Both the position numbers and the translations under genes were made by a program. Source: an uncultured bacterium (GTDB lineage: Bacteria > Omnitrophota > Omnitrophia > Omnitrophales > Abzuiibacteriaceae). From it: 64,000 bases of DNA. Below the pieces are notes generated by a model. It worked only from the letters and a program-made list of their open reading frames with translations. It was not told the origin of the DNA and made no database searches. Numbering within the stretch: position 1 is the first letter of the stretch; each line of letters starts with the position of its first letter. Below, one piece after another: positions 1 to 60,580 of this stretch. The DNA lies in contig CAYLXA010000001.1 in the NCBI GenBank assembly GCA_964387845.1, positions 128,001-192,000 of the forward strand, read 5' to 3'.

Positions 1-3000
1 GCATGCGTTCTGCCAGTTCCGGATCGCGCCGAAGCTGTTTGGGCAATGCATGATTGTTAATCCAGGCTTTCTTCCGCACATTCTGCGGCGTTGCTTGAAG
101 TCCTTCTCGGTTAAGATCACGGATTGCATTGAGAATTCTTCGTGAGAAAAATTGGTTAACGGCTTCTTGAACTGCCCGGTTTTGATTTGTACGGTTTTGA
201 ACCACATCCAGCGAAAGCCGCGATTCCCTTGCGATCGTCATAAAGCTTGTTTTGGATTTCTGGCTTGGTTTCACGCGGCTTAGCTTTTGCAGTGCGTCGA
301 GAATCTCCGAATCATAAAATTCATTCAAAGCAGCTTGAACATTGACGTCCGACCGGACCAATGCTTTGAAATCGGGAACGGACAAGCCTGCTAAACTTGC
401 GATCGTGCGTGTATTTCGAACTGTTATAGACCAATCACTTCTCAAATGCCGAAGTACGGTGCCCAGTTGGTTTGGTTTTGCCCGCCGAAGTTCGCTGCGC
501 CGCTCAGCGCGATGATTGGCCGAAAGCTCGGCCATTTCCATAAGGATGTCGCGCAATCCTTCTTTTTGCACGGAAAAAACGGCGTGCAGCCACTGGAAAT
601 CTTTTTGTAATTGTAGTGTAAAACTGCTTCCCAAAATTAGTTCGGCTACTTGCTTTTTCGCGTTATGGCTGGAATGCTGTGCCTTGCTGGCCCAAGATTT
701 TGTCCGCGGCGGATTTGTATTGGACAATCGATATAAATAGAAAGAAAAACGCCTGATTCCGCTCATTATTTGTTGGAAAGTTTCTGAACTTAATGAATAT
801 GAGTCGGAATTCATTGTAAATTTCGCATATTCATCCCGGAATTTATCTGACAGAACAGCAAAATTGCCGCTCACCTCACGCAAAACGCTCTCGGCCTCGG
901 GATAACGGCGGGCAAGATATTTCAAATTTGTTTCCACATCTTCTATCAAGCGGCTGCCAACCGCAAACAACAACTGATGGCGGATAACAAAAGAAATCCC
1001 GTCCGGCTGGCTAACAGCATGAGGTGAGACTAAATCAAGATCTTCGTGATTGCGGTGCTGGAATTTCATTCCAACCCGCTGATTGACATAAATTTCGGTT
1101 AATAAATCAAGCAACATTTCATATCCGGCTGATCCGAGAGACACTTGCCTCTCCAGCCGGTCTATAAAGCTATGCAAATGGTTAAACAGGACATCATTCA
1201 TATGAGAACGCCATTGGCGTGACTGCATCATCCACAACACCACCGGCAGAAGCTCGTCATATGTACTCTCAGACAACAATTCTCTGAATCGATTGGCTTC
1301 GCCAATAAGATTGATGATAGGCAAATGTCTTTTTGTCACATAATCTTTGATGCGTTTCTCTAGGATACTTTTGGTATTGTAGTGATCAATCGTGAGTTCA
1401 AAATCATTCCGCAGCTCGGAGCGGGCCGGGTCTTCATCTTTGAAATCTAAAGCCTCTACAGACTCATCACGCCGGATTTCTTGCTCAAATGGAGTGACAG
1501 GTTCGGCCTCCACTTTAGGCCTATGGATAGAGTCTGCGATACGCAAAACATTGACCTGCTTATTCATCGAATCGGTCAAAGTAACAGTGGCGGCAAGCCG
1601 GCCTGCATGCTGCCGGACTTGTTTTAAAACAAATATTTTCTTATCAAGGCGCCTGGCCTCGGTTTTACTCCCGCTTGTATACGTTTTTTTCACACCCGTT
1701 ACGAGATAATCAATATGGCCTTCCACGCGATTAACACGCACGATATCCAGCAACTGAATTTGCCGTAGCGGTTCAGGCAGAAAAATAGATCTTTCATCTT
1801 GGATAATCTGCGACACTTCCTGCATGAGCTGATCGAGGCTTTGTAAGGGCACTACTTCTTGTGTATAGGCGGTCCGGTTTACCACGCGCCACTTTCTTCG
1901 AAAAGTTTGAATCCGGTCTCTCAGAAGCCGAATTTCATGAAGCTTCTCGGTATTAATACTTGCTTCCAGATGACTCGGGTGCGCCTGCGTAATTGTGTGT
2001 TGAATGTCAGATTCCGGTTCAAGTGAAATGGGAGCCGTATCCCTTGATTCATCCACTTCATCCAGCATGCGGTTCATGAGCGCTTTCAGAGCGTCCGTAT
2101 TTCCCGCCGCTTGTTTAGTATCTCTCTTCCAACTTTCTCTGACGCGCGGATCAAGCACAAGCGGGCTCAAGATTGAAAACAACCTAGAAAGTAATTGAAA
2201 TAAAGTCGCAGGATCGGTTTGTTGCGCTATTTGCTCCCGCGTACCGGGGATCTTTGGCTGAAGGTCTGATAATTTCTTGAGACGGTCGCTGCTGCCTGAT
2301 AAGAACCGTCCCACCGCATCGGCCTGTTGGGCTTCCGACCTTTCTTCGGCATATCGAGGGCCAGTGTCTTTTGGAACTTCCACTCCAGCTTGTTGAGCCA
2401 ATCGATTCAGATAAGCTTTGCCTTCGCGCTCATCTCTCGCCTTCCGTAAGCGCTCATCTTCCGCGGCTTCACGTGCAATTCTCGCCTGGTCTTGTTGATG
2501 CTTAATGTCCTCCGGATCCGGGAGCTTTGGCCGTTCATCTTCCGCCCGCAATTCGGATGAGGCGCGGGATGTGTTGTCGGTTTCATTGGATATCTTTGAC
2601 CCGTCTGAGTTTGATTCTTTACGGCTGCCATCGAGGACAAAATTCAATTGGCCGCTCAAGAGATCATCGACTTGGACTTCTCCATTTCGCGGCGTACTGC
2701 TGGGATCAATGATCCGATAGACGAACCCCGGCATGAGCGGCACATCGGCATGCCGCTTATGTTTACCATCAGCGTGGCGAACCACAGAACCTACAATGAT
2801 TTTGTCAGCCGTTAAATCTGGATCTTGAAAAACATATGATACGTCTGCGGCAAAACGCTGCGATCTTCCGACCGTCAGAACGATATCGCCGGGCTCGAGT
2901 TGTGAGGCATTGTCGATCGGTTCTGCTGTAAATCCTTGAAGAACTGAGGCAATAAATGCCGAATCCATGGGAAGTGACGGACGATAAAATCGCTCGACCA

Positions 3001-3817
3001 GTGGTTCTATAATCGATTGTTTCCACAATGGAAGCTGGGACAACCATTCCTTGGGGTATCTTTGCGCAAGGTTTTTATAACCTTCCCCAATGCTTGTGTG
3101 GAGGCCAATTCCGCCAATTGTCATCGGTTCTCGCTGATTCTCATCTTGCCGCAGCTCAGAGCGGGCCGACTTCAAAAGCTCCAACACTTCTTTGATCAAC
3201 TCGCGGTCATTCTTCGGAGAGAGAGAACCTGATTGAATTTTTCTCCCGATGATACCAAATTCTGACATTCCGGCTTGCTTTTCCAAATCAAAAAAGACAC
3301 CCGCCATTTCTGGGCTGGCATCAAGGCTTTTTATTTTTCTGCTAGACTCGTGGCGACGAAGAAATCGGGTTGCTTCATCTACCAATCTCTTATCAACTAA
3401 TTTCTTTTGAGTTGTTGGGAGTGTCGAATCACCTAGATCATCCAAATAACCATAAGGATGCTCTGAAGGACGTATTGTCACATAACCAGGCTTCCATTTA
3501 CTCGGATCAAGCGGCCGACTCCGCAGTTCGGAGCGGGATTTTCTGGCTTCAAGCTTCAAGCTTCCAGCTCCAGGTTTAACTGCTTGTGGCTTGTAGCTTG
3601 CAGCTTGTGGCTTGATTGAAACTTGCCCACTCGCGGCAATTTGCGCACTGTAGGGAAGCTGAAGATTAACGTCTTTTCGGAGGCCGAGATTGAAATTAGA
3701 TTTGGTAAGCGATTCGAAGAGAATCGGGGCGTCGCCGTAAGCGACCGTACTGGTCGTTAAAACCGTTGCGACGAGAACAAGGCTAATAAATTTGAAGATA
3801 GAAGATTTTGCCGGCAA
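1..3817 (-). CDS. giant secreted protein, N-terminal ~1270 aa; the C-terminus lies beyond the window start; contains four RSELR motifs
   Basis: Hand translation of the minus strand gives one uninterrupted frame from a TTG at 3817..3815 (preceded by an in-frame TAA) down to nt 1. It is absent from the ORF track because its stop codon lies outside the window. The N-terminus MPAKSSIFKFISLVLVATVLTTSTVAYG looks like a signal peptide. There is a KPQA-type low-complexity stretch and ~55-aa tandem repeats near the window edge. The TTG start is inferred. Confidence 0.55.
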   Translation of the reverse strand, partial: MPAKSSIFKFISLVLVATVLTTSTVAYGDAPILFESLTKSNFNLGLRKDVNLQLPYSAQIAASGQVSIKPQAASYKPQAVKPGAGSLKLEARKSRSELRSRPLDPSKWKPGYVTIRPSEHPYGYLDDLGDSTLPTTQKKLVDKRLVDEATRFLRRHESSRKIKSLDASPEMAGVFFDLEKQAGMSEFGIIGRKIQSGSLSPKNDRELIKEVLELLKSARSELRQDENQREPMTIGGIGLHTSIGEGYKNLAQRYPKEWLSQLPLWKQSIIEPLVERFYRPSLPMDSAFIASVLQGFTAEPIDNASQLEPGDIVLTVGRSQRFAADVSYVFQDPDLTADKIIVGSVVRHADGKHKRHADVPLMPGFVYRIIDPSSTPRNGEVQVDDLLSGQLNFVLDGSRKESNSDGSKISNETDNTSRASSELRAEDERPKLPDPEDIKHQQDQARIAREAAEDERLRKARDEREGKAYLNRLAQQAGVEVPKDTGPRYAEERSEAQQADAVGRFLSGSSDRLKKLSDLQPKIPGTREQIAQQTDPATLFQLLSRLFSILSPLVLDPRVRESWKRDTKQAAGNTDALKALMNRMLDEVDESRDTAPISLEPESDIQHTITQAHPSHLEASINTEKLHEIRLLRDRIQTFRRKWRVVNRTAYTQEVVPLQSLDQLMQEVSQIIQDERSIFLPEPLRQIQLLDIVRVNRVEGHIDYLVTGVKKTYTSGSKTEARRLDKKIFVLKQVRQHAGRLAATVTLTDSMNKQVNVLRIADSIHRPKVEAEPVTPFEQEIRRDESVEALDFKDEDPARSELRNDFELTIDHYNTKSILEKRIKDYVTKRHLPIINLIGEANRFRELLSESTYDELLPVVLWMMQSRQWRSHMNDVLFNHLHSFIDRLERQVSLGSAGYEMLLDLLTEIYVNQRVGMKFQHRNHEDLDLVSPHAVSQPDGISFVIRHQLLFAVGSRLIEDVETNLKYLARRYPEAESVLREVSGNFAVLSDKFRDEYAKFTMNSDSYSLSSETFQQIMSGIRRFSFYLYRLSNTNPPRTKSWASKAQHSSHNAKKQVAELILGSSFTLQLQKDFQWLHAVFSVQKEGLRDILMEMAELSANHRAERRSELRRAKPNQLGTVLRHLRSDWSITVRNTRTIASLAGLSVPDFKALVRSDVNVQAALNEFYDSEILDALQKLSRVKPSQKSKTSFMTIARESRLSLDVVQNRTNQNRAVQEAVNQFFSRRILNAIRDLNREGLQATPQNVRKKAWINNHALPKQLRRDPELAERM

Positions 3818-3927
3818 AGTGGTTTAGCCTGCTTTCTTAAAAAGTGTTTAAATAGTACCATTTTACACCTAATATGGCAAGTTTATGACCCAATATTTAA
3901 TAATTACAGATAAAAATAGAAGGAAAA

Positions 3928-3987
3928 TTAGTGGTAAGTGGTAAGCGATAAGTTGTTCGAATAACTTAAAACTTACCACTTAAAACT
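3928..3987. repeat. heptamer-built palindromic element, copy A: (TAAGTGG)n arm, spacer, (CCACTTA)n arm
   Basis: ttaGTGGTAAGTGGTAAGcgataagtt...aacttaaaacttaccacttaaaac. It shares a 16-nt identical core (AGTGGTAAGTGGTAAG) with copy B at 60581..60650. Confidence 0.6.
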
Positions 3988-3990
3988 AGA

Positions 3991-4221
3991 TCAGCCATCA
4001 CTACCGATGGCTTCGACGGGACATTCTGTAATGGCTTGCTCGCAGCGCTCGCGTTCTTGATCGTTCGCGGGCTGCTTGTGGACATAGCTGTAACCGCTTT
4101 GCTCGTTGCGCTCAAAATTGGCGGGTGCCGTTTGACGGCAAAGATCGCAGTCAATGCACTGCGTATCAACATAAAAAGCGCCTTCAACGTTTCCTAGATG
4201 TTTATGATCTTTGTTAGCCAT
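3991..4221 (-). CDS. small ferredoxin (single 4Fe-4S cluster, CxxCxxC...CP type)
   Basis: 76-aa ORF with CIDCDLC....CP(VEAI) cysteine spacing typical of single-cluster bacterial ferredoxins. It lies next to the 2-oxoacid:ferredoxin oxidoreductase genes. Confidence 0.7.
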   Translation of the reverse strand: MANKDHKHLGNVEGAFYVDTQCIDCDLCRQTAPANFERNEQSGYSYVHKQPANDQERERCEQAITECPVEAIGSDG

Positions 4222-4355
4222 TTTCTTTTAAATTCAAATATCAAATTTCAAAATCTAAAACAAATTCTAAATTCAAATGTTTCAATACAGCTGTTTTGAA
4301 TTTAAGGATTTGGTTATTTGAAATTATTTTGAATTTTGATATTTGATATTTGAAT
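4222..4355. repeat. ~130-bp AT-rich imperfect palindrome filling the aspA-fdx intergenic space
   Basis: The outer arms are a perfect 18-bp inverted repeat: taaattcaaatatcaaat (4224..4241) and atttgatatttgaattta (~4337..4354). The inner parts are built from ttcaaat/atttgaa units around a central ACAGCTGT. Confidence 0.6.
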
Positions 4356-26962: not shown

Positions 26963-26972
26963 GCCTGGCTCC

Positions 26973-35932: not shown

Positions 35933-38900
35933 TTAGGCTTTGATGATGAGTTCGTGCGCATTTTGGAATTCTGCTCTTAACTCGCTTGAAAACTTGACGA
36001 TATTGAACAATCCTCTGATATCGTCGGCAGAACTTTCATCATCAATAACGCCGCGGTTTTTCATAGCAAGCGCAATCCCCCGGTCCTCTTTTAAGCCAAG
36101 CGCCTGGATAAAACCAACCTGTAGCTTCTTTTTTAAATAATGCGCCGCCTGATCGGGATATTGAAACACTTTCATTCGTTCATCGGCTTGAAAAGAAACG
36201 GCCGCGGCTCCGTCCGAAACCACCGCGACTTCATAACCTTGCGCTTTATAGTAACGCACAAGAAGCGGTGTCACGGTGCCCGCTTCGCGCGTTAAAATAT
36301 CCATCAAAATTACGCCGCGCTTTAAATGGAGATCTTGATTCGAGTCGCCGCTGATTTCAAACGTTCGGTTTAAATAATTTCTAAGTTCCGGCGTTAAAAA
36401 CAACCCCGGATCCGCATCGATTTGCCGCGCGGCTTCTCGCACGCTTGATTCCATAGTTTCTATATGCATCTCGAGCCCGTCAAACGGGTTTAGATGATCA
36501 AATCTTAACTCGGACTTGGCGCCATCACCTTTAACCAAGTAAGTGTAAATTTTCTGAAATTCATGTTCATAGCTTTCGGTAAATTTTTCTTCTTTCTCGG
36601 CCACGCGGCGATAATATTCCGAAGCTTGTCCGGTAACATACTGCCACAAGGTAAAATTTGTCTGATTTTGTTTATTAAAATCAGCCAACTGCTCTGCGTC
36701 TATTTCACCTTGCGCCTCTCCCTGGTGGCGTAGAAAAATCGGTATCTCCGGCCCTAGAAAAACTTCGGGAAAAAGCGCGGCAATTTGCCTGACGATGCTT
36801 AGGAAATCTTGGGACGGATCATTGTCTAAATTCTCTGAAATATCCTGAAGAATTTCTCGGTAGGCTTCCAAACCGAAGGCGTCCACTGGAAAATCATTTT
36901 GCTTAAAAAACTCAGCCCCGTGCGAGGCCGCTGTCTTATTCGGAACAAACAAAAGGCCATTGATCAGCGCGGAACCGTACTCCAATATTTTCTGCCTATT
37001 TTGAACAGGATCTTTTAGAAATTCTTTTAATGAAGGCAAAAACCCTTTGATTAAAATGGGCATCAATTGAATATCCAGTTCATCTGTCCCGATACGGTGA
37101 TCATGCCTTAAGTGCGGGCCCAGGATTCCGAATAAAAGAGCTGCTCCTTGCGCGGATTTTTGCGCAAGCGCCGCAGCGTTATCAAGAAAGACTTGGTCAT
37201 TGTCAGCAAATGACAAAAGTTTTTTAAGCAGCAGGCCGTCAGGTTCGGGAATTACATCATTCAAACGGCCGTCTTCATGCCCCCGCAGTTCGGAACGGTT
37301 TTCAATGGTAATCAAAACCTCTTCCTGTGCGGGGTTTTTGGTTGGAATCACCCTGACCTTAAATTCAAGTGATTCTGAAGCATCGTTCAATACAAATGTC
37401 CCGTAATCGGAACCGGCGCGCTGCCGTTCGATGGCAACATCTTTTGCTATTAACTTCACCAATGTAAAAAAGTGAAGCGCATTTCCGGCAGGTTTGGCAG
37501 TGAAATGCCTGGCAGAAATCTTGCTGTCTGAATCTTTAGACACGATTACGGTAACAACAGCACCGTTACGAATCAACCGCACAGATTTTGCCTGCTTCAA
37601 TTTGAAAACGGGTTTCAGCACATAAGATTGAACCAATTTTGAATAAGGAAGCGGTGTTTCATGGTTGGATGCGATTGACAATAAAAATCGGCCTTGATCC
37701 CGGTTCATGATCCAGAGTGCAAATTGCGCGCCCTTAAGCTCCAACCGTTCCCTTTCGGTCATCGTGCGGCTTTGGGTCAAGCGCTTCATATCCAACTTAT
37801 CAAAGCGCTCCAAGAGCCCATGGAACTTTCCGGGGTCGAGCAGCTCATCCGCGTCAACCTCGGAAAGCACAAGAAGAGTCAGTAAGTGGCCAAGCTGTCT
37901 AAATAACGGGCTTTTATCTCTAAAGTCCTCGAAAAGATTCTTCGCATCTTCAAGCAGGCTGCGGACTTCATCATAGGCAAGGCCAGATGCTGTCAAATAT
38001 CGCATTTTGCCCACCGCGCGCAAAAATTGCCCCTCTTGATCCATGGTTAATCCGACTTTATTTTCGGTTTCTGGATCATCCGGATTGATAATTTCGATGG
38101 GGTCAAGGCCTTCGCGGAAATCTTCCTCTAAAAATTTCTTCAATTCATCCGAACGTTTTCCCATTTCGATTAAAAGCTGGGATAACGCCCTTAATTCGGA
38201 ACGCTGCCCTCCGGCAGAGCCGTTTTGTGCATTATTGCGCTTCTTATAATTTGACACTTCAATAGACAAATCATTGATTTCATTGGCTAACGCTTCAACT
38301 TTAAAAATAAGCTTTCGATTTGGATTTTTTGGATCGGCGAGAATGAACGAGCCGATTTGATCAACATTTCCCCGGTTAATATCGATCTGCTGCGTAAAAA
38401 ATTGCAGTAAGGTTAAAAAATAAAACGCGTCTTGCTTTTCTAATTTGAACTTTTCAGATTTTATGACGTCGCGCTGTGCGTCTGAATCCAGATAGTAAAT
38501 TTCGACTGTATTTGTCTTTTGAACACGTTTGATTTTAATGAAGCCAATATCATCCTCTTTAAATGCCGGGTCTATGATCATTTGCTTTAATAACTGGCCA
38601 ACCTGAAACTGCCTGATCGCCAAATGAATAAAGCGGCCTTGATACTGTCTCATGCCGGCCAACAAGTATTTTGCCGCTGCCGCGATCAGCTTGTCCATCG
38701 GGTCCAGCGGCTGTCCGTTCCGTTCGGAATAATGAAATCTCATAGCTAAGCTGACCAGTTCGTGAAATATGTCGGTTTGAAAATATGTGTTGAGCTTTTC
38801 GGGCGTTCTTGCTAATTCGGTTTGAATTGTTTCGAGCTCACTTCGAAAACCATCGGCTACACTAATGTAGTGATAAGTACCCGCCGCAGAAATAGCTTGT

Positions 38901-41900
38901 GTCAAAAGCTGGTCGAAGCGCCGGTTGTGAACCAGATAAAATAGCGGCGGATAGGCACCATGCTCCAAATCAACTTGGCCAACCACATAGTCAAAGAAAT
39001 CTTTGACTGCTTTTTTTGCATCATTGTTGCCGAGCCGCATCATCACACTGTCTTTTTGCTTGACTAGTCTCTGCGTCAACAATTCTTCAATTTCAAATAA
39101 GCGCTGGCCCATCTCGGCCAAGTCGATTTCCAGTTTGCTCCATCCGCTATTTCCGATATCGCCCGATTTGGTTCGGAGTTCGGATCTTTCCGCAGGTTGT
39201 TTTTGATTATCAAACTCGGCGGTCAATTTAAACGATCTAGCATGTTCGGCGTCGAATGCTTCGAGCATCGGGTCGGCGTATTCGAAAAGCCAGCTAAAAT
39301 CTTTTTCTGCCTCGGGAGTTTTAAAACCAAAGTCTTCTGTAAAAATAGAGAAATCAACCTCAGGCCGGCCGCTCAATAAAAATGTAAGACTAAGCGGATT
39401 TTCTATCTCACGATTACCGTTGATTTCGTCCAGCCATGCTTGAAATAATGCGGCTAGGCGTATTTTCCTTTTATCCAAACTGCCGTCCGGACGCATGATA
39501 TGCCTTAAATTCTTCAGTTCGTTTGCAACCGCTTCGCGCCGCTCTTCGTCTGAAAATGATTGAATATAATCATCAAAGTTGCCGGGTGGCCCGATCTCCT
39601 TCAGAACTGCTTCTGCCAATACTACGAATTGCTCATAATGAGGCTGGGTGGCATACACAACATAACGCCGAAACCAATCCTTCATTTTGGGATCTTGATA
39701 ATAATCAAGAAGCCTTTTCATCGAAGGATCCTTTTGAGCCGACTCATAAAATGTCTCCCCTTTAAGGATCATCTTCCTGTTCAGGTCTTGGTCGAATCGA
39801 TAGCTGCCGTCCGGCTGTATCGCCAAACTAATATTGTTGCGGTGAATCTGCCGATATTTTTTAAATTGCACTGCCCGGGGATTATTCGTTTTTTCGGGAT
39901 AATGAATGAATTTTGCCACATTAATAAAGTACCGAATATTCATCAGCCGGAATTTTCTGGGAAGCCAAGCTGTATAATCATAATCGATGGCAGCCAAGGC
40001 ACTGTTGGGTTCGTCCTTAGATTGCGGCGCCTTCATCAGAACAATTTCAAAGGGTTTCAGCAAAGACCGCCCGTTCAGAGTCACTTCATTGCCGATTGCC
40101 AAACGGGACCCTTTGCTAATCAAACTGATAAATTCCCGGATCAAATTGCGATCCTCTTCGGTTTCGGCATATTTCAGATCTTGATCCAGGATAAAGCGAA
40201 GTTCTTCCGCCAGTCTGTCCATTTTCTCCGAATTCCCCGGCGGAACCCGGAGCGCAAACTGATCAAGCTTGCTGAAGCCAATAGACAAATCGACTGGATC
40301 ATACGGAACTTGCGGTGCCGGATCTTCAAATAGGCGATATTGCAAATCCCGCTTAAACCACCGGACAACGGGGAAATAATAAAATAATGCGGCAATCATC
40401 GATAGCACAGACCCAAAAACCGAGGCCCAAACTATCCGCTTCTTCAGAATTTGCCGTTTTGCATGCTTAAGCCGCTTCTGGCGCTCAAGCAGATTATTCA
40501 AAGCTTGTTTAGCAAGTGAAACGATGTGATGATCGCTATCCTCCGGGCCGAATTCAAACTGAATAACTTGCCCGCGCTTTGTTTCAAGTGCCGCGTATCC
40601 GGATTTTCCATTCTCAGGCAAAAGCACAAACGGTTTTTCCCATGGCCCATGGAAAACAAACGGCTCTTCGTTCGGTAATCTGAGAATCAATTTCTCAATC
40701 TCCCCGGGCCGTTCGGCTTGGCGCCTTTCTTCATCCAATCGTTGTTCGTTATTCCGCCAATCCCTTTTTATTTGCTGAACTTTTCCTAACGCGTCCGCCC
40801 TTTTGGCAGCCGTGGTCTCATCATCATGGAGCACATTTTGGTATTCTGTGTGGCCGAACAGTTTTGTCAGCAAATGATCACGGGATTGAGCGGTCGGAAG
40901 GCCATAAACAACCTCCGCCACGTGAAGCACTCCGCTTTCAATTGCGCTCCGGAGCGAATTTAACTTTGATGGCGTAGCATCAAGCTCTTTTCCTCTCGCC
41001 GGAATTAGATGAAACGGCAAATGACTTTTCCCGGAATCTAAGAATAAACTGATAGATCGTAGTTTTTTTCCGTTTAATTCAATTTCTTTTTTAAAGTTAA
41101 TTTGAATAGTTGATGGCTTGCCAGAATGATCCACGATGATTCGAGTGTGGCTGGAAAAATCGTTCGCCACACCGATAATTGTGTCGGCTATTTCTTTTTC
41201 AGGAACGAGCGGCCGAAAACCTAAATGAGTCCATATTTGAATAATACGTGGATCACGACTTTCGCCTTCTAATTTTAGAACGCTTCCGTTCTTAGACGAT
41301 AATTGATTCTGTGCTATGAATTCGATTTTGCCGTGAAGTTTATGATTCAACCTCGTTGGGTCTATGGTTTCAAGCCGCACCACTTCAGTGCTTGCGCGAA
41401 GCTCTGATCGCGGCGTAGTTTGATTAGTTGCAATTCTGGTAAAGACGAGATAATGCCAATAGCGCCCTGATTTGTAAAAAGCCGGGATGGCGCGCGATCC
41501 TGTAGAACTTTGCCATTCTTCAGGATGAATAAATTCGCGAAATGCTTTTAATATGGAATCGCCCGCTCCATCAAAATCGAACTCTAGCTCGTCAAAGGGG
41601 TACTCAAAAGTAATTTGGCCGCCCTCCGGAATCCTGGCAATTAACTGCCGAAACCACTCTTGCGAGAGCGAATCGACGTAGCGGTCGATATTTCCAAAAC
41701 GGACATGACGATAAGCCGGCTCTTGAAATAACAAGGCGGGATCCCGGATATCAACCCGGCGGATTTCTATTTGGTCACCGAGACGTAAGAATTTTTTGGC
41801 TCGTTTCGAAAAAGCCTCCACGAAAAACGAGCGGTCTGAGAAAATAAAATGATCATCACCGCTGATTTGTTTAAAAAAGTTCACGGCGTTGGTTCCTGAA

Positions 41901-44900
41901 GCCAGATCCAAAACCGGCAGTCTTCTTAATTTTGGATCATTTGAGTTCAAATAAACCGGCACTTCGTCGTCAAAATGTTTCGCCGAAAATGCCATCACGG
42001 CTGCAAACTCGCCTAACTTCTGCAAAAATAATCTTGCTTCGGGTAAATTTTCAAGATAAGCACGCTCCGAAAATTGAATGACTCTCTCTAATTCATCGTA
42101 AATATATTCAAAATCAGAAAACATTGGAAGCGATCGCACAACTTCCGGCCAAAACGTATCAAAATTCAAATAGTAATGATATTGAAATATCATTTGAGCC
42201 AAATATCCGTTGGCTTGCCGAAGGATTCGGCCACGCAAATCTTTGTAATCCTCGATTCCGAACTTTTCTAAAAGCTCGGTGGGCCACGGCTTTGAAACTC
42301 TACGGCTGCTGATTTGATGAAAAACGTGCAAGCTCAAAAACCCGACGGTAGAAGCAACTACAACCGGCCACATCAAGCTACGAAGCTCAGAACGAATCCA
42401 TTTATCCGATAAGTCATGCTGGATTTCGCGGAACTGTTCGCGCCATTGAATCAGCTCGGCGTTTCGTTTGCGTGCATCATCCGCAATTGCTTGAAGCGGT
42501 TTTGGCACCATGCTTTGAACATAATATTGAATATCCAATTGAGCAAACCAGTTCCCAAAACGATATCTTTCACCATCCGGAATTTGACTCAGGTTAAAGT
42601 TTTCATGTTTTAATTTGGAAATAGCGAGCTGCCCTGCCAAGCGAGTCGATAAAGCTCCTGAAAAATAAAGCTGGAGCAACTTTGTTAAATGAAAAAAGTA
42701 AACAAAGTTAAGCCCATTGTTGCCAAATAAAACAGGGTCAAATGCAAACGCATCCTCTCCGCCTTTTTCAGGCCTAAAGTAGAGATCGATTAAGTTCGAA
42801 TTAAAAGAAGCATCTTTGACGTGGGTTATTCCGATTTCCCGCCATATACGCACATCCAGATCACCAATTCCCAACGCGTGGCGTAAACTTCCAAATAAAT
42901 AAACTCGCGGATATAAATCCGATTCAGAATAGCTTTCTTTAGCGCGTACAAAATCGAGTGCCTTTTTCAACTCATCAACCAAAAGAATTGAATTTTGAAA
43001 ATGTTCTAAATTAGTATAAGGATGCGTCAGGTGAAAATACAGCCGATGAAGCATATTGTGGACAAAACTCACGCCATTGATTTCTTCAAAAAGCCGGAGA
43101 TCTGCGGGAAGCACTCTTAGGCGTGGAGACTTTTCTTTGTTCCAACTGCGGATCAGCTGTTCAATCTCAGAATTGATTTGGATGTAGTTTTCTGATGCGC
43201 CCGATTCGAGATCTGGTTTGGCTAGGTCTTTTGATAACTGGAATAACTGATCCTCCATCGACATAATTTTCATGAAAAAATCAAAATCATCATCTGTTAA
43301 AGATCTATGGATGCTTTTCTGAATTTGCTTCAGAAAATAAATCGTATTGTCGAGGAGAATTTTGTGCGCTGCATCCTGCGGTATGTCAAAATGATCGAAC
43401 ATTTTTTGCGCCATTTTTTCAGCGGTTGGATAGAAAAGCGGCTGACCCAATTCATTCATTCTGAGTTCAGAACGGCGAGCAGTCTTCAAGAAACCTGATG
43501 CACCTGCCAACACTTTGCCTGCTTCAGGTAAACTTAATCTTCGAAGGAGCAATGGTTTCACGTTCTTCGCGGCTTTTCGTCTAGCGACTAAATACAAGAC
43601 ACCTTCAAATTCGGTTGCCGCCTCTTTTAAAGTCAGTTCTCGAAGCGGTCCGTCAATACCGTACTTTTCCCAACTCGCGCTTCGGCTTAAGGGGAGGCCA
43701 AAAACCTGAACGTCGATGTTTCGCCGTCTGAAGAGATTGACTAATTCGGCATTTGTCTTGACGCCGCGCGGATTAAGGCTGGATTTGGTTGCGTAAAGCA
43801 GTACGGAATTTTGAACAACGACCGAAGCGCCCGGGCTCATATTTGCCAAAACTTCTCCCGCAACTTTTTGAGCATCAACGTAATTCAATAAATTTGAAAT
43901 GACAATGGTGTCAAATTGAGAATATAAATGCGGCGGACTTAGCTGAGAAGAAGGCTTGCCCTCACGAAGAACCAAATCGATTGCATGGCGATCCTCCGGG
44001 CTCATACTCTCGATCCGCTCAACATCCGCCCGCACAGTCAAAACGTTACCCTTCTGCTCAATATCCTTGGGTGGGCGGAGAGCAAGCGCCACGATTTTTT
44101 TCTTTGGATACATTACAGCTGACAAAGGATTGCCCCCATCCCCCAATTCTAAAATTCGATCCCCTAAACCGCCGGATCGTTCTAACGCTGAGAAAACAGT
44201 TGCTAAATCGCCTCGAAATGTGACATCTTCGTCCCTATAAAAATTCCGCCATAGAAATTCACGGCCGAGATTGGTCAATTCCAGCTCAGAGGTCTTGCCC
44301 ACCACACTGCCTTGAAACACGGACGACAAAGACACAGCCGCTCGATTGCCGTCCTGCATCTGTAAACTTAAATTTCCCTCAAAAGAAGAAGCGTGGATGG
44401 TTATTTTGATTGTTTTTTTATTCTCATCGTCAAATTCCAGAAAATAACTTTCGCTCAAACTTCCTCCGGTTGCGATTTTTTTCGAAAAAGGTTTTTCCTT
44501 GGTATAAAAAGAAATGTTTTTTTGAATCAGGCGGACAAATTTCTGTACTTCTTCCGGCACATCACCGATGGTTTTGAGATCACCTGTTTTAAAAGTTCCC
44601 TCGGCCGAGCCAACAAAAACGAAACCGGTTTCATACTGCGTAAAAAACTGAAATCGCGAGGCCTTCTCTGCCTGAGTTTCATTGGGAACTACTCGAATGT
44701 TGTACCAATCGCCGCTGACAGGATGATAAACCAATAATAAAAATCCATGGCCATTTAATTCGTCTGCAAAAAATAAGTCGCCAATTCTTGGGTTCTGTGG
44801 ATCGGGCTTTCTTCTGCTTTCAAAACTGCCCAAATAGCCGGCGGCCTGCAGGCGCGCTATCAGACGAATGGCGGCAGGGCTAAATGTTTCGCTTTGTTCG

Positions 44901-45286
44901 CGCAATCTTTCATCGGATAGGGCCCTAAAAATAAATTGACGCTTGTCGGTTCTTCGCCGGTAACGCGCAATAGAAAAGTCTTTTAAAAATTCATCAGCCG
45001 TGAGCGCTTTGCCGTTATATTTTTTAAGAAATCTGGAAAGTCTTTCAACGTCTTTCTTTAAAATGGAAATCCGCGAAGCCTGGTTTGCCAGCGCGCTTGT
45101 CCGCAATTCAGAACGGACAATAGCCGGATTTAAGTTCCGGAAGGAACGGCTCTTTAAATAACTTGCGGCTTTTTGAAAGAAGGCGGTGGCAGACGGAATA
45201 TCACTGTACGCAATGGTGCTTGTGAAGGTAAAACTCAGCAGGGTTGTGAGGGCAATGGTTTTGAATAAAGCGGACTTTAATTTCAC
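35933..45286 (-). CDS. 3117-aa giant secreted/membrane protein with seven RSELR/KSELR motifs and two Rossmann/methyltransferase-like motif-I regions
   Basis: Single uninterrupted ORF. Signal peptide MKLKSALFKTIALTTLLSFTFTSTIAYS. Two central hydrophobic helices (LMWPVVVASTVGFLSLHVF; IVWASVFGSVLSMIAALFYYFPVV). ILELGDGGNP and VLDLASGTNAV resemble SAM-MTase motif I. Confidence 0.85.
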   Translation of the reverse strand: MKLKSALFKTIALTTLLSFTFTSTIAYSDIPSATAFFQKAASYLKSRSFRNLNPAIVRSELRTSALANQASRISILKKDVERLSRFLKKYNGKALTADEFLKDFSIARYRRRTDKRQFIFRALSDERLREQSETFSPAAIRLIARLQAAGYLGSFESRRKPDPQNPRIGDLFFADELNGHGFLLLVYHPVSGDWYNIRVVPNETQAEKASRFQFFTQYETGFVFVGSAEGTFKTGDLKTIGDVPEEVQKFVRLIQKNISFYTKEKPFSKKIATGGSLSESYFLEFDDENKKTIKITIHASSFEGNLSLQMQDGNRAAVSLSSVFQGSVVGKTSELELTNLGREFLWRNFYRDEDVTFRGDLATVFSALERSGGLGDRILELGDGGNPLSAVMYPKKKIVALALRPPKDIEQKGNVLTVRADVERIESMSPEDRHAIDLVLREGKPSSQLSPPHLYSQFDTIVISNLLNYVDAQKVAGEVLANMSPGASVVVQNSVLLYATKSSLNPRGVKTNAELVNLFRRRNIDVQVFGLPLSRSASWEKYGIDGPLRELTLKEAATEFEGVLYLVARRKAAKNVKPLLLRRLSLPEAGKVLAGASGFLKTARRSELRMNELGQPLFYPTAEKMAQKMFDHFDIPQDAAHKILLDNTIYFLKQIQKSIHRSLTDDDFDFFMKIMSMEDQLFQLSKDLAKPDLESGASENYIQINSEIEQLIRSWNKEKSPRLRVLPADLRLFEEINGVSFVHNMLHRLYFHLTHPYTNLEHFQNSILLVDELKKALDFVRAKESYSESDLYPRVYLFGSLRHALGIGDLDVRIWREIGITHVKDASFNSNLIDLYFRPEKGGEDAFAFDPVLFGNNGLNFVYFFHLTKLLQLYFSGALSTRLAGQLAISKLKHENFNLSQIPDGERYRFGNWFAQLDIQYYVQSMVPKPLQAIADDARKRNAELIQWREQFREIQHDLSDKWIRSELRSLMWPVVVASTVGFLSLHVFHQISSRRVSKPWPTELLEKFGIEDYKDLRGRILRQANGYLAQMIFQYHYYLNFDTFWPEVVRSLPMFSDFEYIYDELERVIQFSERAYLENLPEARLFLQKLGEFAAVMAFSAKHFDDEVPVYLNSNDPKLRRLPVLDLASGTNAVNFFKQISGDDHFIFSDRSFFVEAFSKRAKKFLRLGDQIEIRRVDIRDPALLFQEPAYRHVRFGNIDRYVDSLSQEWFRQLIARIPEGGQITFEYPFDELEFDFDGAGDSILKAFREFIHPEEWQSSTGSRAIPAFYKSGRYWHYLVFTRIATNQTTPRSELRASTEVVRLETIDPTRLNHKLHGKIEFIAQNQLSSKNGSVLKLEGESRDPRIIQIWTHLGFRPLVPEKEIADTIIGVANDFSSHTRIIVDHSGKPSTIQINFKKEIELNGKKLRSISLFLDSGKSHLPFHLIPARGKELDATPSKLNSLRSAIESGVLHVAEVVYGLPTAQSRDHLLTKLFGHTEYQNVLHDDETTAAKRADALGKVQQIKRDWRNNEQRLDEERRQAERPGEIEKLILRLPNEEPFVFHGPWEKPFVLLPENGKSGYAALETKRGQVIQFEFGPEDSDHHIVSLAKQALNNLLERQKRLKHAKRQILKKRIVWASVFGSVLSMIAALFYYFPVVRWFKRDLQYRLFEDPAPQVPYDPVDLSIGFSKLDQFALRVPPGNSEKMDRLAEELRFILDQDLKYAETEEDRNLIREFISLISKGSRLAIGNEVTLNGRSLLKPFEIVLMKAPQSKDEPNSALAAIDYDYTAWLPRKFRLMNIRYFINVAKFIHYPEKTNNPRAVQFKKYRQIHRNNISLAIQPDGSYRFDQDLNRKMILKGETFYESAQKDPSMKRLLDYYQDPKMKDWFRRYVVYATQPHYEQFVVLAEAVLKEIGPPGNFDDYIQSFSDEERREAVANELKNLRHIMRPDGSLDKRKIRLAALFQAWLDEINGNREIENPLSLTFLLSGRPEVDFSIFTEDFGFKTPEAEKDFSWLFEYADPMLEAFDAEHARSFKLTAEFDNQKQPAERSELRTKSGDIGNSGWSKLEIDLAEMGQRLFEIEELLTQRLVKQKDSVMMRLGNNDAKKAVKDFFDYVVGQVDLEHGAYPPLFYLVHNRRFDQLLTQAISAAGTYHYISVADGFRSELETIQTELARTPEKLNTYFQTDIFHELVSLAMRFHYSERNGQPLDPMDKLIAAAAKYLLAGMRQYQGRFIHLAIRQFQVGQLLKQMIIDPAFKEDDIGFIKIKRVQKTNTVEIYYLDSDAQRDVIKSEKFKLEKQDAFYFLTLLQFFTQQIDINRGNVDQIGSFILADPKNPNRKLIFKVEALANEINDLSIEVSNYKKRNNAQNGSAGGQRSELRALSQLLIEMGKRSDELKKFLEEDFREGLDPIEIINPDDPETENKVGLTMDQEGQFLRAVGKMRYLTASGLAYDEVRSLLEDAKNLFEDFRDKSPLFRQLGHLLTLLVLSEVDADELLDPGKFHGLLERFDKLDMKRLTQSRTMTERERLELKGAQFALWIMNRDQGRFLLSIASNHETPLPYSKLVQSYVLKPVFKLKQAKSVRLIRNGAVVTVIVSKDSDSKISARHFTAKPAGNALHFFTLVKLIAKDVAIERQRAGSDYGTFVLNDASESLEFKVRVIPTKNPAQEEVLITIENRSELRGHEDGRLNDVIPEPDGLLLKKLLSFADNDQVFLDNAAALAQKSAQGAALLFGILGPHLRHDHRIGTDELDIQLMPILIKGFLPSLKEFLKDPVQNRQKILEYGSALINGLLFVPNKTAASHGAEFFKQNDFPVDAFGLEAYREILQDISENLDNDPSQDFLSIVRQIAALFPEVFLGPEIPIFLRHQGEAQGEIDAEQLADFNKQNQTNFTLWQYVTGQASEYYRRVAEKEEKFTESYEHEFQKIYTYLVKGDGAKSELRFDHLNPFDGLEMHIETMESSVREAARQIDADPGLFLTPELRNYLNRTFEISGDSNQDLHLKRGVILMDILTREAGTVTPLLVRYYKAQGYEVAVVSDGAAAVSFQADERMKVFQYPDQAAHYLKKKLQVGFIQALGLKEDRGIALAMKNRGVIDDESSADDIRGLFNIVKFSSELRAEFQNAHELIIKA

Positions 45287-45476: not shown

Positions 45477-46547
45477 ATGGACCATACGCATCATCAAAAA
45501 ACAAACGGATCTGAATGCTGCCATCATTCGGAGCAGGCTCGCCGGAAAGCGCCGTGGTATCACAATAAGCTGACAATCATTTTGCTAGGCACTGCCCTGC
45601 TTTATGGCGTGTCTTTTATTTTTCAGCCTCTTCTTGCATTTCGCGAGTCATTTGACAGTTATTTGAAAATCATCGCCATTCCGATGCTCATTGGGCTTCT
45701 CTTGGGCGGCGTGATCGATTACTACATCCCGCAGGAATATGTCTCAAAATATTTAGCACGCACCACGAAACGCACTGTTTTTTACGCAACAGGCCTCGGA
45801 TTTCTGATGAGCGCCTGCAGCCACGGTATTTTGGCACTTTCCATGGAACTTCATAAAAAAGGCGCATCAGGCCCTGCGGTTGTGAGCTTTCTTTTAGCAA
45901 GCCCGTGGGCCAATTTGCCGGTCACTTTTCTTTTGATCGGATTTTTCGGGTGGAAAGGGTTTTTGATTATCTTGGCCGCATTTCTAGTTGCGATTACCAC
46001 AGGTCTCGCGCTTCAACTTTTAGACAGTCGGGGCCTGATTGAAAAGAACCGGCATACTTCTGCGGTGAACTCGGAATTTTCAATTTTGAAAGATATGAAA
46101 CGGAGATTTTCCGAATATGAGTGGACTTTCTCCAATTTATCCAAGGACCTGCGCGGCATCGGAAAAGGCTCTTGGGAGCTTTCGGAAATGATTTTATGGT
46201 GGATTTTAATCGGACTGATTCTCGCGAGCCTGACATCTGCGTTTGTGCCGCACGGAATTTTCCAGAAATATTTCGGGCCGACCTTGCTTGGCTTAGTGGC
46301 TACTTTGCTTTTGGCCACTATTTTTGAAGTTTGCTCGGAAGGCACATCGCCTTTGGCGTTTGAAATTTATAAACAAACGGGCGCATTCGGCAACGCGTTT
46401 GTTTTCTTAATGGGCGGCGTGGTAACGGATTACACCGAAATCGGGCTTTTGTGGATTAATCTTGGAAAACGAACTGCGCTTTGGACACTGGCGTTATCAA
46501 TTCCGCAGGTGTTTTTGATTGGCTGGGCGCTCAATATACTTTTCTAG
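45477..46547 (+). CDS. predicted permease (DUF318-like multi-TM protein) with a Cys/His-rich N-terminus
   Basis: 356 aa with ~8 TM segments. N-terminal CCHH cluster. Confidence 0.6.
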   Translation: MDHTHHQKTNGSECCHHSEQARRKAPWYHNKLTIILLGTALLYGVSFIFQPLLAFRESFDSYLKIIAIPMLIGLLLGGVIDYYIPQEYVSKYLARTTKRTVFYATGLGFLMSACSHGILALSMELHKKGASGPAVVSFLLASPWANLPVTFLLIGFFGWKGFLIILAAFLVAITTGLALQLLDSRGLIEKNRHTSAVNSEFSILKDMKRRFSEYEWTFSNLSKDLRGIGKGSWELSEMILWWILIGLILASLTSAFVPHGIFQKYFGPTLLGLVATLLLATIFEVCSEGTSPLAFEIYKQTGAFGNAFVFLMGGVVTDYTEIGLLWINLGKRTALWTLALSIPQVFLIGWALNILF

Positions 46548-47416
46548 CCGATCCGGAGCCGGACGGTTTCCTGTTTACCGTCTTTCTCGATCACAATGCT
46601 GGTGGGCTTAATTTCAATGATCTTCGTATGGCCCACTTGATCGCCGGGGCGCCAGATTTTTCCATTAATCAAAACAACCGGGTCGGAAGCATCATACATA
46701 ATGCCTTCCAGCACTAAATCTTCATGAGGCGCAGATTCAGCCCATGTCTTGAAAGGATTACGGCCGAATTCCCGGAACCGTGTCTTGCCTGCTTTTCGCA
46801 ATTCAACCGACAATTGGCCTTGATCCATATAAATCAGCTTTTCGTCATTCTCCGGAACAAAAACGGATACCGTCAGTGGCCCCCGGAGAAAATCGCTTTC
46901 GGGATTAGGCGGTGAAAACCGGAATTCGTCAACCCGCATGACGGCTTGATCCAACTTTCCCAGTTGTGAAAGAAATAGCGCGACATCCTGATAACTACCG
47001 CGGATCGTCATATCGATCGGAATCCGCGATAAATTCGGAAGCAGTTTTTTCTCGCTTTCATTTAAATCGGTTTTTGCCCTGGGTGAAATAGAATCAAATT
47101 GCACATTAAAGCGTTTGCCGGTGCTTGTGATTTGTTCGATGTAGGTCGCAACATTATTTCCTGACGTAAACTTAGCGAGCTCTTCTTTTAATTCTGCATT
47201 CGCGGCGGGTTCATTCAGCCGGTCCAATTGCCAGACTTCCTCGCGGTAATGATCCAGCTGGCGGCGGGTCTCGTAATAACCACTTTTTGCCTTGTCCACG
47301 CGAAGCGCCATAACACCGACTAGTGCAAGCATCGCGCACCCGATGACGCCGATAGCGCTCATTGGAATATGCTTGTGCCCGATTTTGATATCAATTTTCA
47401 TGTCTGAAAACTTCAA
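46544..47416 (-). CDS. fused PilO-like / PilP-like pilus assembly protein
   Basis: TM helix, then a coiled coil, then a PilO-type block (IDMTIRGSYQDVALFLSQLGKLDQAVMRVDEF). The C-terminus has a PilP/GspC-like beta-domain (VLINGKIWRPGDQVGHTKIIEIKPTSIVI). Confidence 0.5.
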   Translation of the reverse strand: MKFSDMKIDIKIGHKHIPMSAIGVIGCAMLALVGVMALRVDKAKSGYYETRRQLDHYREEVWQLDRLNEPAANAELKEELAKFTSGNNVATYIEQITSTGKRFNVQFDSISPRAKTDLNESEKKLLPNLSRIPIDMTIRGSYQDVALFLSQLGKLDQAVMRVDEFRFSPPNPESDFLRGPLTVSVFVPENDEKLIYMDQGQLSVELRKAGKTRFREFGRNPFKTWAESAPHEDLVLEGIMYDASDPVVLINGKIWRPGDQVGHTKIIEIKPTSIVIEKDGKQETVRLRIG

Positions 47417-49020
47417 ATCGCCTCTCCCAATATTGAAAAAGTGACTGATTTTTCATTCCGGTCAGACTCGGCCAAAGTAGGTTTTCGAAAAACCGGGCCT
47501 TCAATCTGCTCCAGTGATTTCGAGAGGAGCCCCTGCTGACTGTCGACCGGGAAACTGCCTTTAATGATAAACAAGCCTCTCTGATAAGAGAATTCGGATA
47601 AAGTCACTTCTCTCGGAAATGCTTGAGATAACTCCTGAAAAACATCCTCCCAGTAAGGTTCTGAGGAAAAAACTCCGGAGATCAGTGTTTTCACCTGCAT
47701 GCTTTTCTGACGGATTGCTTTCACTTTTTGCGCTTCTTCATATCCCGGCTGCAGGTTCGCAATTTGCAAATGTAAAGACTTTGTCTTATCTGAGATGGTA
47801 ATGGATTGCCAGGCCAGACTTGAAAACAGTAAAACAAAAGCGGTCAAAGCGGCAATGGCTGTTTGCCGGTACGAAAAGAATTTAACCGCGGAGTTCCCCA
47901 TCTTGAGCAAATCGGGAAGCCACGGCTTTTTTAAATTATGCCTATCTAAAATAATGCTGATAGGACGGTAAAAACCGTTCAAATCGTCTTCACGGAGTTT
48001 GTCGGAAATTTCAATGTCCTGGAAAAAATAAACGGGCTTAACGGGGACTTGGAGAGTTTGTTCCACAAATTGAATAAACCCCTTAAGTCGGCTTCCGCCG
48101 CCTGTGAGAAAGATACGTTCAATTCCTTCCCCGTGTTCCTGGGAGTAAAAATCAAAAGAACGCCGGAGTTCACCGGTTAATTTTTGTAAAACGGGCCGGA
48201 TGAGCGGATATAATTTTGAAGCTTCGATTTTGCCGGCAATCAAATTTTCATTTTCGGCACCCAAAAATACGCTCTCATGCCGTGCCCGATCGGCCTCTTC
48301 CATGGTTAGCGCAATGCGTCCTTTATCAGTCACGATAGGCTGCGTGAGCGCCTGGCTCAATAATTCGCCGCCGAAAGAAATTTTGCGCAGAAAATCAAGC
48401 CGGCCGCCCGCATAAAGCGCGATTTCCGCAATTTTATGGCCAATATCAACCACTGTTACCAAATGCCGCGTCGACTGTGCGAAGGCATACGGCAAATGAT
48501 CGACTTCGAAAGCTGCATTCGCCAATTCAAAAGAACTGCAGCCGGATTCGCGGAGAATGCCGGCCAATGTCTCATAAACCTTGACGGGAAGAGCTGTTAC
48601 TAAAACTGTCTGTCTAAGGTCCTTTTTTTGACCCGGCATAGGTACGATTTTGTAATCTAGTTTCGCTTCTTCGATGGCAAACGGGAGTTCATCTTTTACT
48701 TTCCATTTAATTGTGTCGACCAAGTCTTTTTGAGATATGTTCGGAACGACAAAAGACCCGAAATAAGTTTGGAGGCTGTTGGTTACTAAAAAAACGGTAT
48801 GGCGGCTCAAATCAAACCCGGACAAAGCTTTCGCGGCTGCTTGCTTCAGCGTTTCCCTGGCCTGAGCAACATCCTCGTAAGGCGGAACCGGAATGCTCCG
48901 TGCCTCCAGAAGATGGAACCGCTTTGCGGCCGTTTTTATCTGGACAATTTTGACAGAGGAAGAAGCGAACTCGATTGCCAAGAAGAAGCGTTCGCGGTTT
49001 TCGTTGGGCCAATTCAGCAT
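47413..49020 (-). CDS. fused PilM (actin-like ATPase fold) - PilN pilus assembly protein
   Basis: N-terminus LAIEFASSSVKIVQIK, a PilM-type start. After ~370 aa there is a TM helix plus a PilN/GspL-like periplasmic region. Confidence 0.65.
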   Translation of the reverse strand: MLNWPNENRERFFLAIEFASSSVKIVQIKTAAKRFHLLEARSIPVPPYEDVAQARETLKQAAAKALSGFDLSRHTVFLVTNSLQTYFGSFVVPNISQKDLVDTIKWKVKDELPFAIEEAKLDYKIVPMPGQKKDLRQTVLVTALPVKVYETLAGILRESGCSSFELANAAFEVDHLPYAFAQSTRHLVTVVDIGHKIAEIALYAGGRLDFLRKISFGGELLSQALTQPIVTDKGRIALTMEEADRARHESVFLGAENENLIAGKIEASKLYPLIRPVLQKLTGELRRSFDFYSQEHGEGIERIFLTGGGSRLKGFIQFVEQTLQVPVKPVYFFQDIEISDKLREDDLNGFYRPISIILDRHNLKKPWLPDLLKMGNSAVKFFSYRQTAIAALTAFVLLFSSLAWQSITISDKTKSLHLQIANLQPGYEEAQKVKAIRQKSMQVKTLISGVFSSEPYWEDVFQELSQAFPREVTLSEFSYQRGLFIIKGSFPVDSQQGLLSKSLEQIEGPVFRKPTLAESDRNEKSVTFSILGEAI

Positions 49021-49027
49021 GATGATT

Positions 49028-51246: not shown

Positions 51247-51248
51247 GA

Positions 51249-51659: not shown

Positions 51660-51678
51660 TCCATTGCGATGAATCTAA

Positions 51679-52152: not shown

Positions 52153-52175
52153 GATGAAACTCCTCCTTCGTTTGT

Positions 52176-53384: not shown

Positions 53385-53390
53385 TGCTTA

Positions 53391-60565: not shown

Positions 60566-60580
60566 TGCATTGCCTCAGTG

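Follow-up and report, generated by a model that had tools for sequence, protein, structure and literature searches.

Omnitrophota are widespread, ultra-small bacteria with the longest genes found so far, and it is a matter of debate in this field whether their giant proteins function as single chains or are cleaved into smaller products. This question is also raised by the left edge of a 64,000-nucleotide stretch of DNA from an uncultured member of this phylum (GenBank assembly GCA_964387845.1, contig CAYLXA010000001.1, positions 128,001 to 192,000 of the forward strand), which is referred to here as the window. Positions 1..3817 of the minus strand are occupied by an open reading frame (ORF), here called giant A, which comprises codons 1-1272 of a 3617-codon ORF whose remainder lies to the left of the window. 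The original prediction, made from the letters alone, regarded it as a partial gene, at the edge of the window, for a giant exported protein sharing an RSELR signature with a second giant of the same window (giant B, 3117 aa, 35933..45286, minus strand). The present analysis, which is computational throughout, suggests a different answer, to which we give even chances: the ORF of giant A may encode a polyprotein that is cleaved at a recurrent [R/K]SELR pentapeptide. A strict pentapeptide at the ends of modules makes the choice between a single chain and cleaved products testable.

The open frame of giant A is real and represents the first third of a 3617-residue gene of Candidatus Omnitrophota. 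The reverse complement of positions 1..3817 yields 1272 codons and zero stops, so that the continuous frame proposed from TTG to nucleotide 1 is borne out. With regard to the start, an in-frame TAA at 3826..3824 makes the TTG at 3815..3817, the first start codon after it, the earliest start possible, and an independent gene call on a Logan contig places the start at the identical base (position 443 of L001, equivalent to window position 3817). This contig, SRR15237813_35004 (L001/L052), was found via the adjoining ferredoxin gene. It shows 0 mismatches to the window over 4259 bases and carries the frame onward to a stop codon at L052 11294-11296, which completes the leftward extension that had been called for. 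The complete gene (L052 443-11296) encodes 3617 aa, and its apparent partiality was thus due to the cut of the window and not to the end of a contig. The ORF list that accompanied the window omits frames that run off the end of the source, hence the absence of giant A from it. Furthermore, an exhaustive HMMER search returned a protein (P0001) which is the translation of giant A, the sole difference being a Met for the TTG codon, and the cluster records of giants A and B each name an NCBI contig of 409,037 bp. A sigma-70-like promoter candidate, TTGCCA-17-TACTAT, lies 35 nt upstream of the TTG (3852..3880, minus strand); it is a consensus match only, and such matches are no commoner there than in shuffled sequences.

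The feature that sets this protein apart is the motif. Within the window, RSELR is found at 3521..3535 (residues 95-99, where it closes the leader module), 3149..3163 (residues 219-223), 1409..1423 (residues 799-803) and 485..499 (residues 1107-1111), all on the minus strand. These are the four copies already noted, to which an SSELR at 2546..2560 (residues 420-424) has to be added, giving five SELR inside the window. Over its full length giant A contains 12 SELR. Giant B contains 9, a syntenic giant from another metagenome-assembled genome (MAG), L006, contains 7, and P0002, a giant fragment from a third MAG (L048), contains 3, with an expectation of about 0.12 per giant. The first 3275 aa of giant A contain 10 copies, while shuffles of the giants never exceeded 3. 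In each giant SELR is the most over-represented 4-mer, and its conservative variants are nearly absent. A six-frame count over 320,772 codons of Omnitrophota DNA placed 24 of the 27 SELR occurrences in the coding frame of a giant ORF, which corresponds to a roughly 290-fold enrichment. Across the 31 sites of the four proteins, position -1 is occupied by R 24 times, by K 4 times, by S twice and by H once, and no conservation is seen in the flanks beyond that position. The first SELR lies within about 100 residues of the N-terminus in each giant. The motif also closes the last module, 5 residues before the C-terminus in giant A and 13 residues before it in giant B, and it is therefore not just an inter-domain linker.

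At the nucleotide level the 31 sites are heterogeneous. Ser is encoded by five codons drawn from both of its families, Leu and Arg by all six codons each and Glu by both of its codons, and since synonymous codons of all families occur, selection acts on the SELR peptide and not on the DNA or RNA. A DNA-level repeat or recombination site at the motif was rejected as its codons are scrambled, and internal translation starts were rejected as no consistent Met follows SELR. P0002 contains two sequences that depart from the motif at one residue, RAELR (residues 71-75) and RSALR (residues 154-158), the former being followed by a transmembrane (TM)-like segment; they may be tolerated or decaying sites.

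Cutting giant A after each SELR results in segments of 99, 124, 201, 379, 308, 604, 493, 121, 496, 347, 168 and 272 aa, plus a 5-aa tail; the modules of giant B range from 62 to 741 aa, plus a 13-aa tail. All of the domain matches fall within single modules; those in giant A are to helix-turn-helix (HTH), Peptidase_Mx1 and Metallophos, and the L006 giant has a methyltransferase. Module 6 (1..409, minus strand; residues 1137 to ~1600, extending past the window) is a tandem array of ~54-aa HTH-like repeats, with units of 53-60 aa that match Pfam HTH_11 (8.9e-7) and, more weakly, other HTH families. When four units from beyond the window edge are combined into a profile, it detects two in-window stretches that played no part in its construction, a unit at 1172-1227 (independent E-value, i-E, 2.5e-6) and, at 1137-1169, half a unit (i-E 1e-4). 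The tandem repeats of about 55 aa reported near the edge are accordingly real. Module 7 combines a lipoprotein-type signal with an HExxH peptidase, matched by Peptidase_Mx1 at 1e-4 and by an NCBIfam family of HExxH lipoproteins at 1.7e-6. Module 8 is a two-TM unit of 121 aa, and module 9 joins a putative twin-arginine-type signal to a domain without a family match. Module 10 is a Metallophos domain (2.7e-11) whose nearest PDB entries by sequence are PPP Ser/Thr phosphatases. The methyltransferase, which is of the S-adenosylmethionine-dependent type, sits in one module of the L006 giant.

No BLASTP similarity is found among giants A, B and L006, in agreement with the earlier impression that A and B share RSELR and are otherwise unrelated. 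A word-indexed search of 5.8 billion proteins gave no match for residues 1-1272, for residues 1716-3275 or for an alignment of the three leaders, and pattern scans with giant A over species-representative genomes and JGI metagenomes gave none either. Pfam and NCBIfam returned only noise on giants A and B taken whole, and a search of PDB by sequence matched only the phosphoesterase module of giant A and nothing in giant B. A phage or defence origin was rejected, as PHROGs and PADLOC yielded nothing meaningful and no phage or viral family was matched.

Module 4 (1409..2545, minus strand; residues 425-803) is the only module with homologues. In the exhaustive HMMER search with residues 1-1200 against 1.84 billion representatives, the only other matches were to P0002 (over residues 440-763 of giant A) and P0003 (over residues 450-794 of giant A), both confined to this module. 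By BLASTP, residues 421-770 of giant A align with residues 414-741 of P0002 at 36% identity (E 1e-56). The alignment begins at an SELR in both proteins, exactly at the SSELR site in giant A, and stops at the next RSELR of P0002, and the flanking modules are unrelated; similarity among the giants is limited to this one module, in giant A and in the fragment from the third genome. Because the alignment spans from SELR to SELR between unrelated neighbours, modules are exchanged as units joined by the motif. A recurrent short site at the boundaries of independently folding units, as expected of a proteolytically processed polyprotein, is found here in the motif statistics, in the exchange and in the Pfam domains lying inside modules.

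The third protein carrying module 4, P0003 (L049 6924-27743), is itself a giant of 6939 aa, with the homologous region at residues 5291-5642. It has zero SELR and a normal cysteine content of 0.69%. Its top 7-mer, RPGFALV, occurs three times, with a TM segment after each copy (PGF at 782, 1294 and 2325), and GPGFIAS followed by a TM segment is found at residue 5644, exactly at the end of the shared module. These PGF and TM motifs resemble internal class III (prepilin-type) signals and could be a different punctuation system.

The SELR giants also share their N-termini. The leader of giant A (3734..3817, minus strand; residues 1-28), with a hydrophobic segment at residues 3-28, is of Sec type by eye and ends in AYG↓D. 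It is followed in the leader module by the low-complexity stretch KPQAASYKPQAVKPGAGS (3560..3613, minus strand; residues 69-86), and both the signal-peptide-like N-terminus and this stretch are thus present in the translation, as described at the outset. When the leaders are aligned (giant A …IFKFISLVLVATVLTTSTVAYGD, giant B …LFKTIALTTLLSFTFTSTIAYSD, L006 …FLKLVAFVTFICFTSTSTLGYGD), a giant-specific motif becomes apparent, TSTVAYGD in the leader region of giant A (3731-3754, minus strand) and TSTIAYSD in giant B (45200-45223). In six-frame scans of the loci, no match to the pattern [ST][ST][ST]x[AG]Y[GSA]D lies outside the N-termini of the three SELR giants, and the other exported proteins of the window carry signals different from this TSTxAY[G/S]D leader. 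Additionally, cysteine is almost absent: there is one in the 3617 residues of giant A, none in the 3117 of giant B and none in the 926 of P0002, whereas 35 further window genes average 0.76% (P about 4e-11 for giant A and about 5e-11 for giant B). The giants form a lineage-specific class, defined by the leader, near-zero cysteine and an [R/K]SELR ending each of about a dozen unrelated modules. Such leader-bearing, cysteine-free, RSELR-punctuated multi-module proteins of Omnitrophota are apparently undescribed, and a literature search found no polyprotein proposal for the phylum.

The single cysteine of giant A is the lipobox residue Cys1741 (LSGC) of an internal lipoprotein-type signal. This signal-like segment begins 7 residues after the RSELR at 1711-1715, and its sequence, SNRGKK-IPSAVVSILLSIGAAS-LSGC, reads as a basic n-region, an h-region and a lipobox of the form [LVI][ASTVI][GAS]C. 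Similarly, the RSELR at 2325-2329 is followed by …SRREFTGRFLGAVAAFLGLGSSVFA, and the segment SRREFTGRFLGAVAAFLGLGSSVFA↓G fits by eye the twin-arginine layout of S/T-R-R-x-F-L-K, h-region and A-x-A, although no curated model scored it as a signal. Internal hydrophobic segments start 2-14 residues after SELR in four of nine cases, against an expectation of 7.4% (P = 0.003). The description of giant A as one giant exported protein is therefore doubtful on several counts: lipoprotein-type and twin-arginine-type signals lie inside the chain, within 15 residues after RSELR; the same chain also includes a phosphoesterase, an array of HTH repeats and a small module with two TM segments; and the sole module with homologues has been swapped as a unit between SELR sites. 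Homology resolving the frame into several ordinary-sized genes had been named as evidence against the original prediction, and this is what is found in spirit if not to the letter, since a single ORF is present whose products are most likely some 12 proteins of ordinary size.

Site-specific proteolysis would be the simplest account of these features, because a strict five-residue site ends every module, including the last, and because the residues on its C-terminal side are variable and often lead into a targeting signal of a kind that as a rule functions only at an N-terminus. We infer from this arrangement both the cleavage and its details, that is, the side of the cut, the compartment and the use of the internal signals. 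The cut would be made by an endopeptidase that recognises this sequence and whose gene lies elsewhere in the genome, with cleavage C-terminal to the last Arg (S-E-L-R↓X). This is the most likely position because only the non-prime side is conserved; judging from protease subsites, cleavage after Arg should go together with an invariant non-prime side and a variable residue following it. The cuts would release modules that act as separate proteins. Some of these would bear a lipoprotein-type, Tat (twin-arginine translocation)-type or TM targeting segment at their new N-terminus, and others, such as the HTH-repeat array and the PPP-like phosphoesterase, would have no targeting segment.

Several observations weigh against this proposal. 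There is no candidate protease among the genes of the window and no protease module common to the giants, the HExxH peptidase being found only in giant A; self-processing by a shared protease module was rejected on the latter ground. If cleavage were cytoplasmic, the N-terminal leader would export only a peptide of 30-70 aa. The last module of P0002 (186 aa) lacks a terminal SELR, hydrophobic segments follow the motif in only four of nine cases, and the flanks of SELR are only marginally more hydrophilic than the background (P about 0.04-0.06). The assignments of the internal signals and of the leader are our own reading of the sequence: curated NCBIfam models called neither the Tat-like nor the leader signals and touched the lipoprotein-like signal of module 7 only weakly (E 0.08). 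AlphaFold2 models, with a predicted local distance difference test (pLDDT) score of 39.7 for residues 1-1200 and of 48.6 for module 4 (three sequences), are too poor to provide domain boundaries or to support a search by fold. Moreover, the sample of SELR proteins is small, with four proteins from three genomes of one clade.

The alternative that best withstands the evidence, which we hold to be possible but doubtful, is that giant A is one uncleaved, membrane-anchored multi-domain protein, which its N-terminal signal and internal hydrophobic segments would lead through the membrane as a single chain. The role that [R/K]SELR would then have is put forward equally tentatively: a repeated site that is bound by a chaperone, a secretion component or an adaptor, or that is modified post-translationally, and is not cut. 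Architectures of a signal peptide plus TM segments are the default in the literature for long proteins of Omnitrophota, and giant A as a whole does carry an N-terminal leader. The empty search for a protease, both in the window and in the modules of the giants, is also in line with an uncut chain, and a motif that ends the last module suits a binding tag as well as a cleavage site. The topology is more difficult to reconcile with it. An exported leader places the segment 1722-1746 in an N-out/C-in orientation, with its basic flank SNRGKK on the outside, and the lipobox Cys, the only one in the protein, would face the cytoplasm, which leaves its retention without an explanation. Likewise, a well-formed twin-arginine-type signal has no known function 2330 residues into a chain, and the HTH array, the phosphoesterase and the lipoprotein peptidase would be forced into a single topology.

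It seems improbable, in turn, that the RSELR giants are effector polyproteins directed against prey or host cells or, in a related version, that RSELR separates the products during translation in a protease-free manner. As effectors, the cysteine-free chains would be exported unfolded via the dedicated leader and the neighbouring machinery resembling type II secretion systems (T2SS) and type IV pili (T4P), and RSELR would be cut only after delivery. The HTH arrays, the PPP-like phosphatase and the methyltransferases would then act in the cytoplasm of the target, and modules with Tat or lipoprotein signals would make use of the export systems of the target cell.

Little likelihood is left for the motif being a cassette-junction scar, that is, a remnant of the joining of modules shuffled by recombination that serves no purpose in the protein. 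It is clear that giants exchange modules at the motif, and the presence of the motif in the last module also looks as if module and motif moved as one cassette. Nevertheless, the peptide is invariant at four positions over 31 sites that show no conservation at the DNA level, and a neutral scar would be expected to decay at the protein level. Even less probable is a separation of the kind known from the 2A 'StopGo' sequences of eukaryotic viruses, in which RSELR, while still nascent, would cause the ribosome to leave out a peptide bond. Such a mechanism would account for the operon-like content, for the N-terminal signals after the motif and for the absence of an identifiable protease, but no bacterial example of it is known, sites of the 2A type depend on about 20 conserved residues upstream, compared with only five conserved here, and a motif 5 residues before the stop codon would be left without an explanation. 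Finally, an artefact (misassembly, a pseudogene or several genes fused through sequencing errors) is barely credible, since, for all that the sequence is metagenome-derived and the L006 copy has a scaffold gap, the 3617 codons are free of stops, the protein is recorded from NCBI and Logan sources alike, the Logan contig agrees with the window at each of 4259 bases, the same architecture recurs in three genomes of different projects, and codons vary beneath a fixed peptide motif.

With regard to the genomic context, giant A is preceded by genes for a ferredoxin (3991..4221), a class II fumarase and a 2-oxoacid:ferredoxin oxidoreductase, and the L006 giant lies directly downstream of the fumarase gene in its own MAG. 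The fumarase of the window shares 71-74% identity with the enzymes of six MAGs from groundwater, of which five are labelled Omnitrophota or Omnitrophica, and no more than 56% with any other. Further neighbours include a resistance-nodulation-division (RND) efflux system, NrfAH and the T2SS/T4P-like cluster (46544..55088, minus strand). This cluster, with PilO-like and PilM-like proteins, pseudopilins, GspF and GspE, is upstream of giant B, from which it is separated by a single ArsP-type permease gene on the opposite strand; it provides context only and does not concern giant A. A scan with the PilM-like neighbour of giant B recovered one locus, L047, with no giant gene downstream.

Several other elements of the window were recorded. 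A 60-nt palindromic hairpin element of the GTGGTAAG type is located between the ferredoxin stop codon and giant A (3929..3988). A second element of this type is found just after the stop codon of giant A (L052 11305-11364) and a third at window positions 60576-60643, between pdxJ and a ybbR-like gene. The GTGGTAAG-like pattern has 7 matches in the window, with 0.1 expected, and the element is probably a dispersed hairpin of the repetitive extragenic palindromic (REP) kind or a terminator. The intergenic region between the fumarase and ferredoxin genes is filled by a 42-nt AT-rich inverted repeat (4229-4270 and 4317-4358), with arms that are 86% complementary and separated by 46 nt. The ORF at 16298-22060 (plus strand; 1920 aa) contains nine Flg_new_2 (InlB B-repeat-like) repeats and a PKD-like domain; it lacks SELR, contains 0.42% Cys and begins like an ordinary signal-bearing protein, and thus represents a large surface protein of the conventional kind, in contrast to the giants. 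NrfA (cytochrome c552) and an NrfH-like protein, encoded at 25634-27437 on the minus strand, indicate a capacity for nitrite ammonification in this genome.

If the polyprotein reading is correct, giant A would exemplify something rarely seen on bacterial chromosomes, a polyprotein that packs as many proteins as an operon, with different destinations, into a single gene. The reading predicts the sites of new N-termini in proteomes and the points at which the chains should be split for structure prediction, and it provides a motif for a phylogenetic-profile search for the protease. As smaller relatives of the longest proteins of Omnitrophota, the RSELR giants are also more tractable.

In function, the giants would most resemble, by analogy, MARTX toxins and viral polyproteins, without the defining parts of either. 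The MARTX toxins of Vibrio are secreted, cysteine-poor proteins of 3500-5300 aa, whose unrelated effector modules are freed by site-specific cleavage at a loose X-Leu↓small residue site. The giants are similar to them in size, in the unrelatedness of their modules and in their low cysteine content, release by cleavage being only proposed here. Conversely, Pfam finds neither RTX repeats nor a C80 cysteine protease domain in the giants, of which giant B is cysteine-free altogether; no type I secretion genes adjoin giant A, which has metabolic genes and the RND efflux system as neighbours instead; and their site is a strict pentapeptide. Viral polyproteins processed by proteases of the 3C/NIa type are encoded by one ORF, in which a short, strict site with a conserved non-prime side delimits the mature proteins. 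The giants are comparable in that their modules differ in function and destination, but they are chromosomal bacterial genes with no recognisable protease module and no match to a phage or viral family. A bacterial parallel is offered by the gingipain/HagA polyproteins of Porphyromonas gingivalis, precursors that are cut after Arg/Lys, whose related adhesin and protease domains stay associated and which are exported by type IX secretion via a C-terminal domain. Both are multi-domain bacterial precursors with Arg/Lys cut sites, proposed ones in the case of the giants; the strict pentapeptide and the internal export signals of the giants are features that gingipains do not have. Papers on PL7 alginate lyases describe RSELR as a catalytic-region signature that occurs once, inside a beta-jelly-roll fold; in these enzymes it is accompanied by QIH and YFKAGxYxQ regions within a single domain of ~250 aa. 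This resemblance was rejected as a coincidence, as the giants have no YFKAG signature, only scattered Q[IV]H and no match to a lyase family.

The closest comparison is with the giant proteins, or 'Archaeovorins', already described in Omnitrophota (West-Roberts et al. 2023, bioRxiv 10.1101/2023.11.21.568195; bioRxiv 10.64898/2026.06.07.730766). West-Roberts et al. reported proteins of >30,000 aa in which enzyme domains occur together with TM helices, noted that 'highly unlikely' localisations were predicted for them, and suspected cleavage, the cleavage points being stated as unknown (10.1101/2023.11.21.568195). In the 2026 preprint, internal signal-peptide calls were discarded as artefacts (bioRxiv 10.64898/2026.06.07.730766), and neither paper, when its text was searched, mentions the [R/K]SELR motif, a leader or cysteine. 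The giants studied here are about ten times smaller (3.1-3.6 kaa compared with >30 kaa) and fall short of the gene length of >90 kb that defines Archaeovorins, and Pfam finds in A and B neither a SecA_DEAD or SecA preprotein-binding domain nor the C39 or S8 peptidase that Archaeovorins have near the N-terminus. A T2SS/T4P-like locus upstream has been published for much larger giant genes of Omnitrophota; giant B likewise lies downstream of such a cluster, whereas giant A is preceded by metabolic genes. The likeness extends to the phylum and to the architecture: strongly diverged domains of enzyme type, unrelated to one another, form a mosaic with interspersed TM segments, and a signal stands at the N-terminus. 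In this case the mosaic combines an HExxH peptidase, a Metallophos domain and an HTH array (and a methyltransferase in L006). Taken together, the RSELR giants look like a smaller, punctuated variant of the giant class of Omnitrophota.

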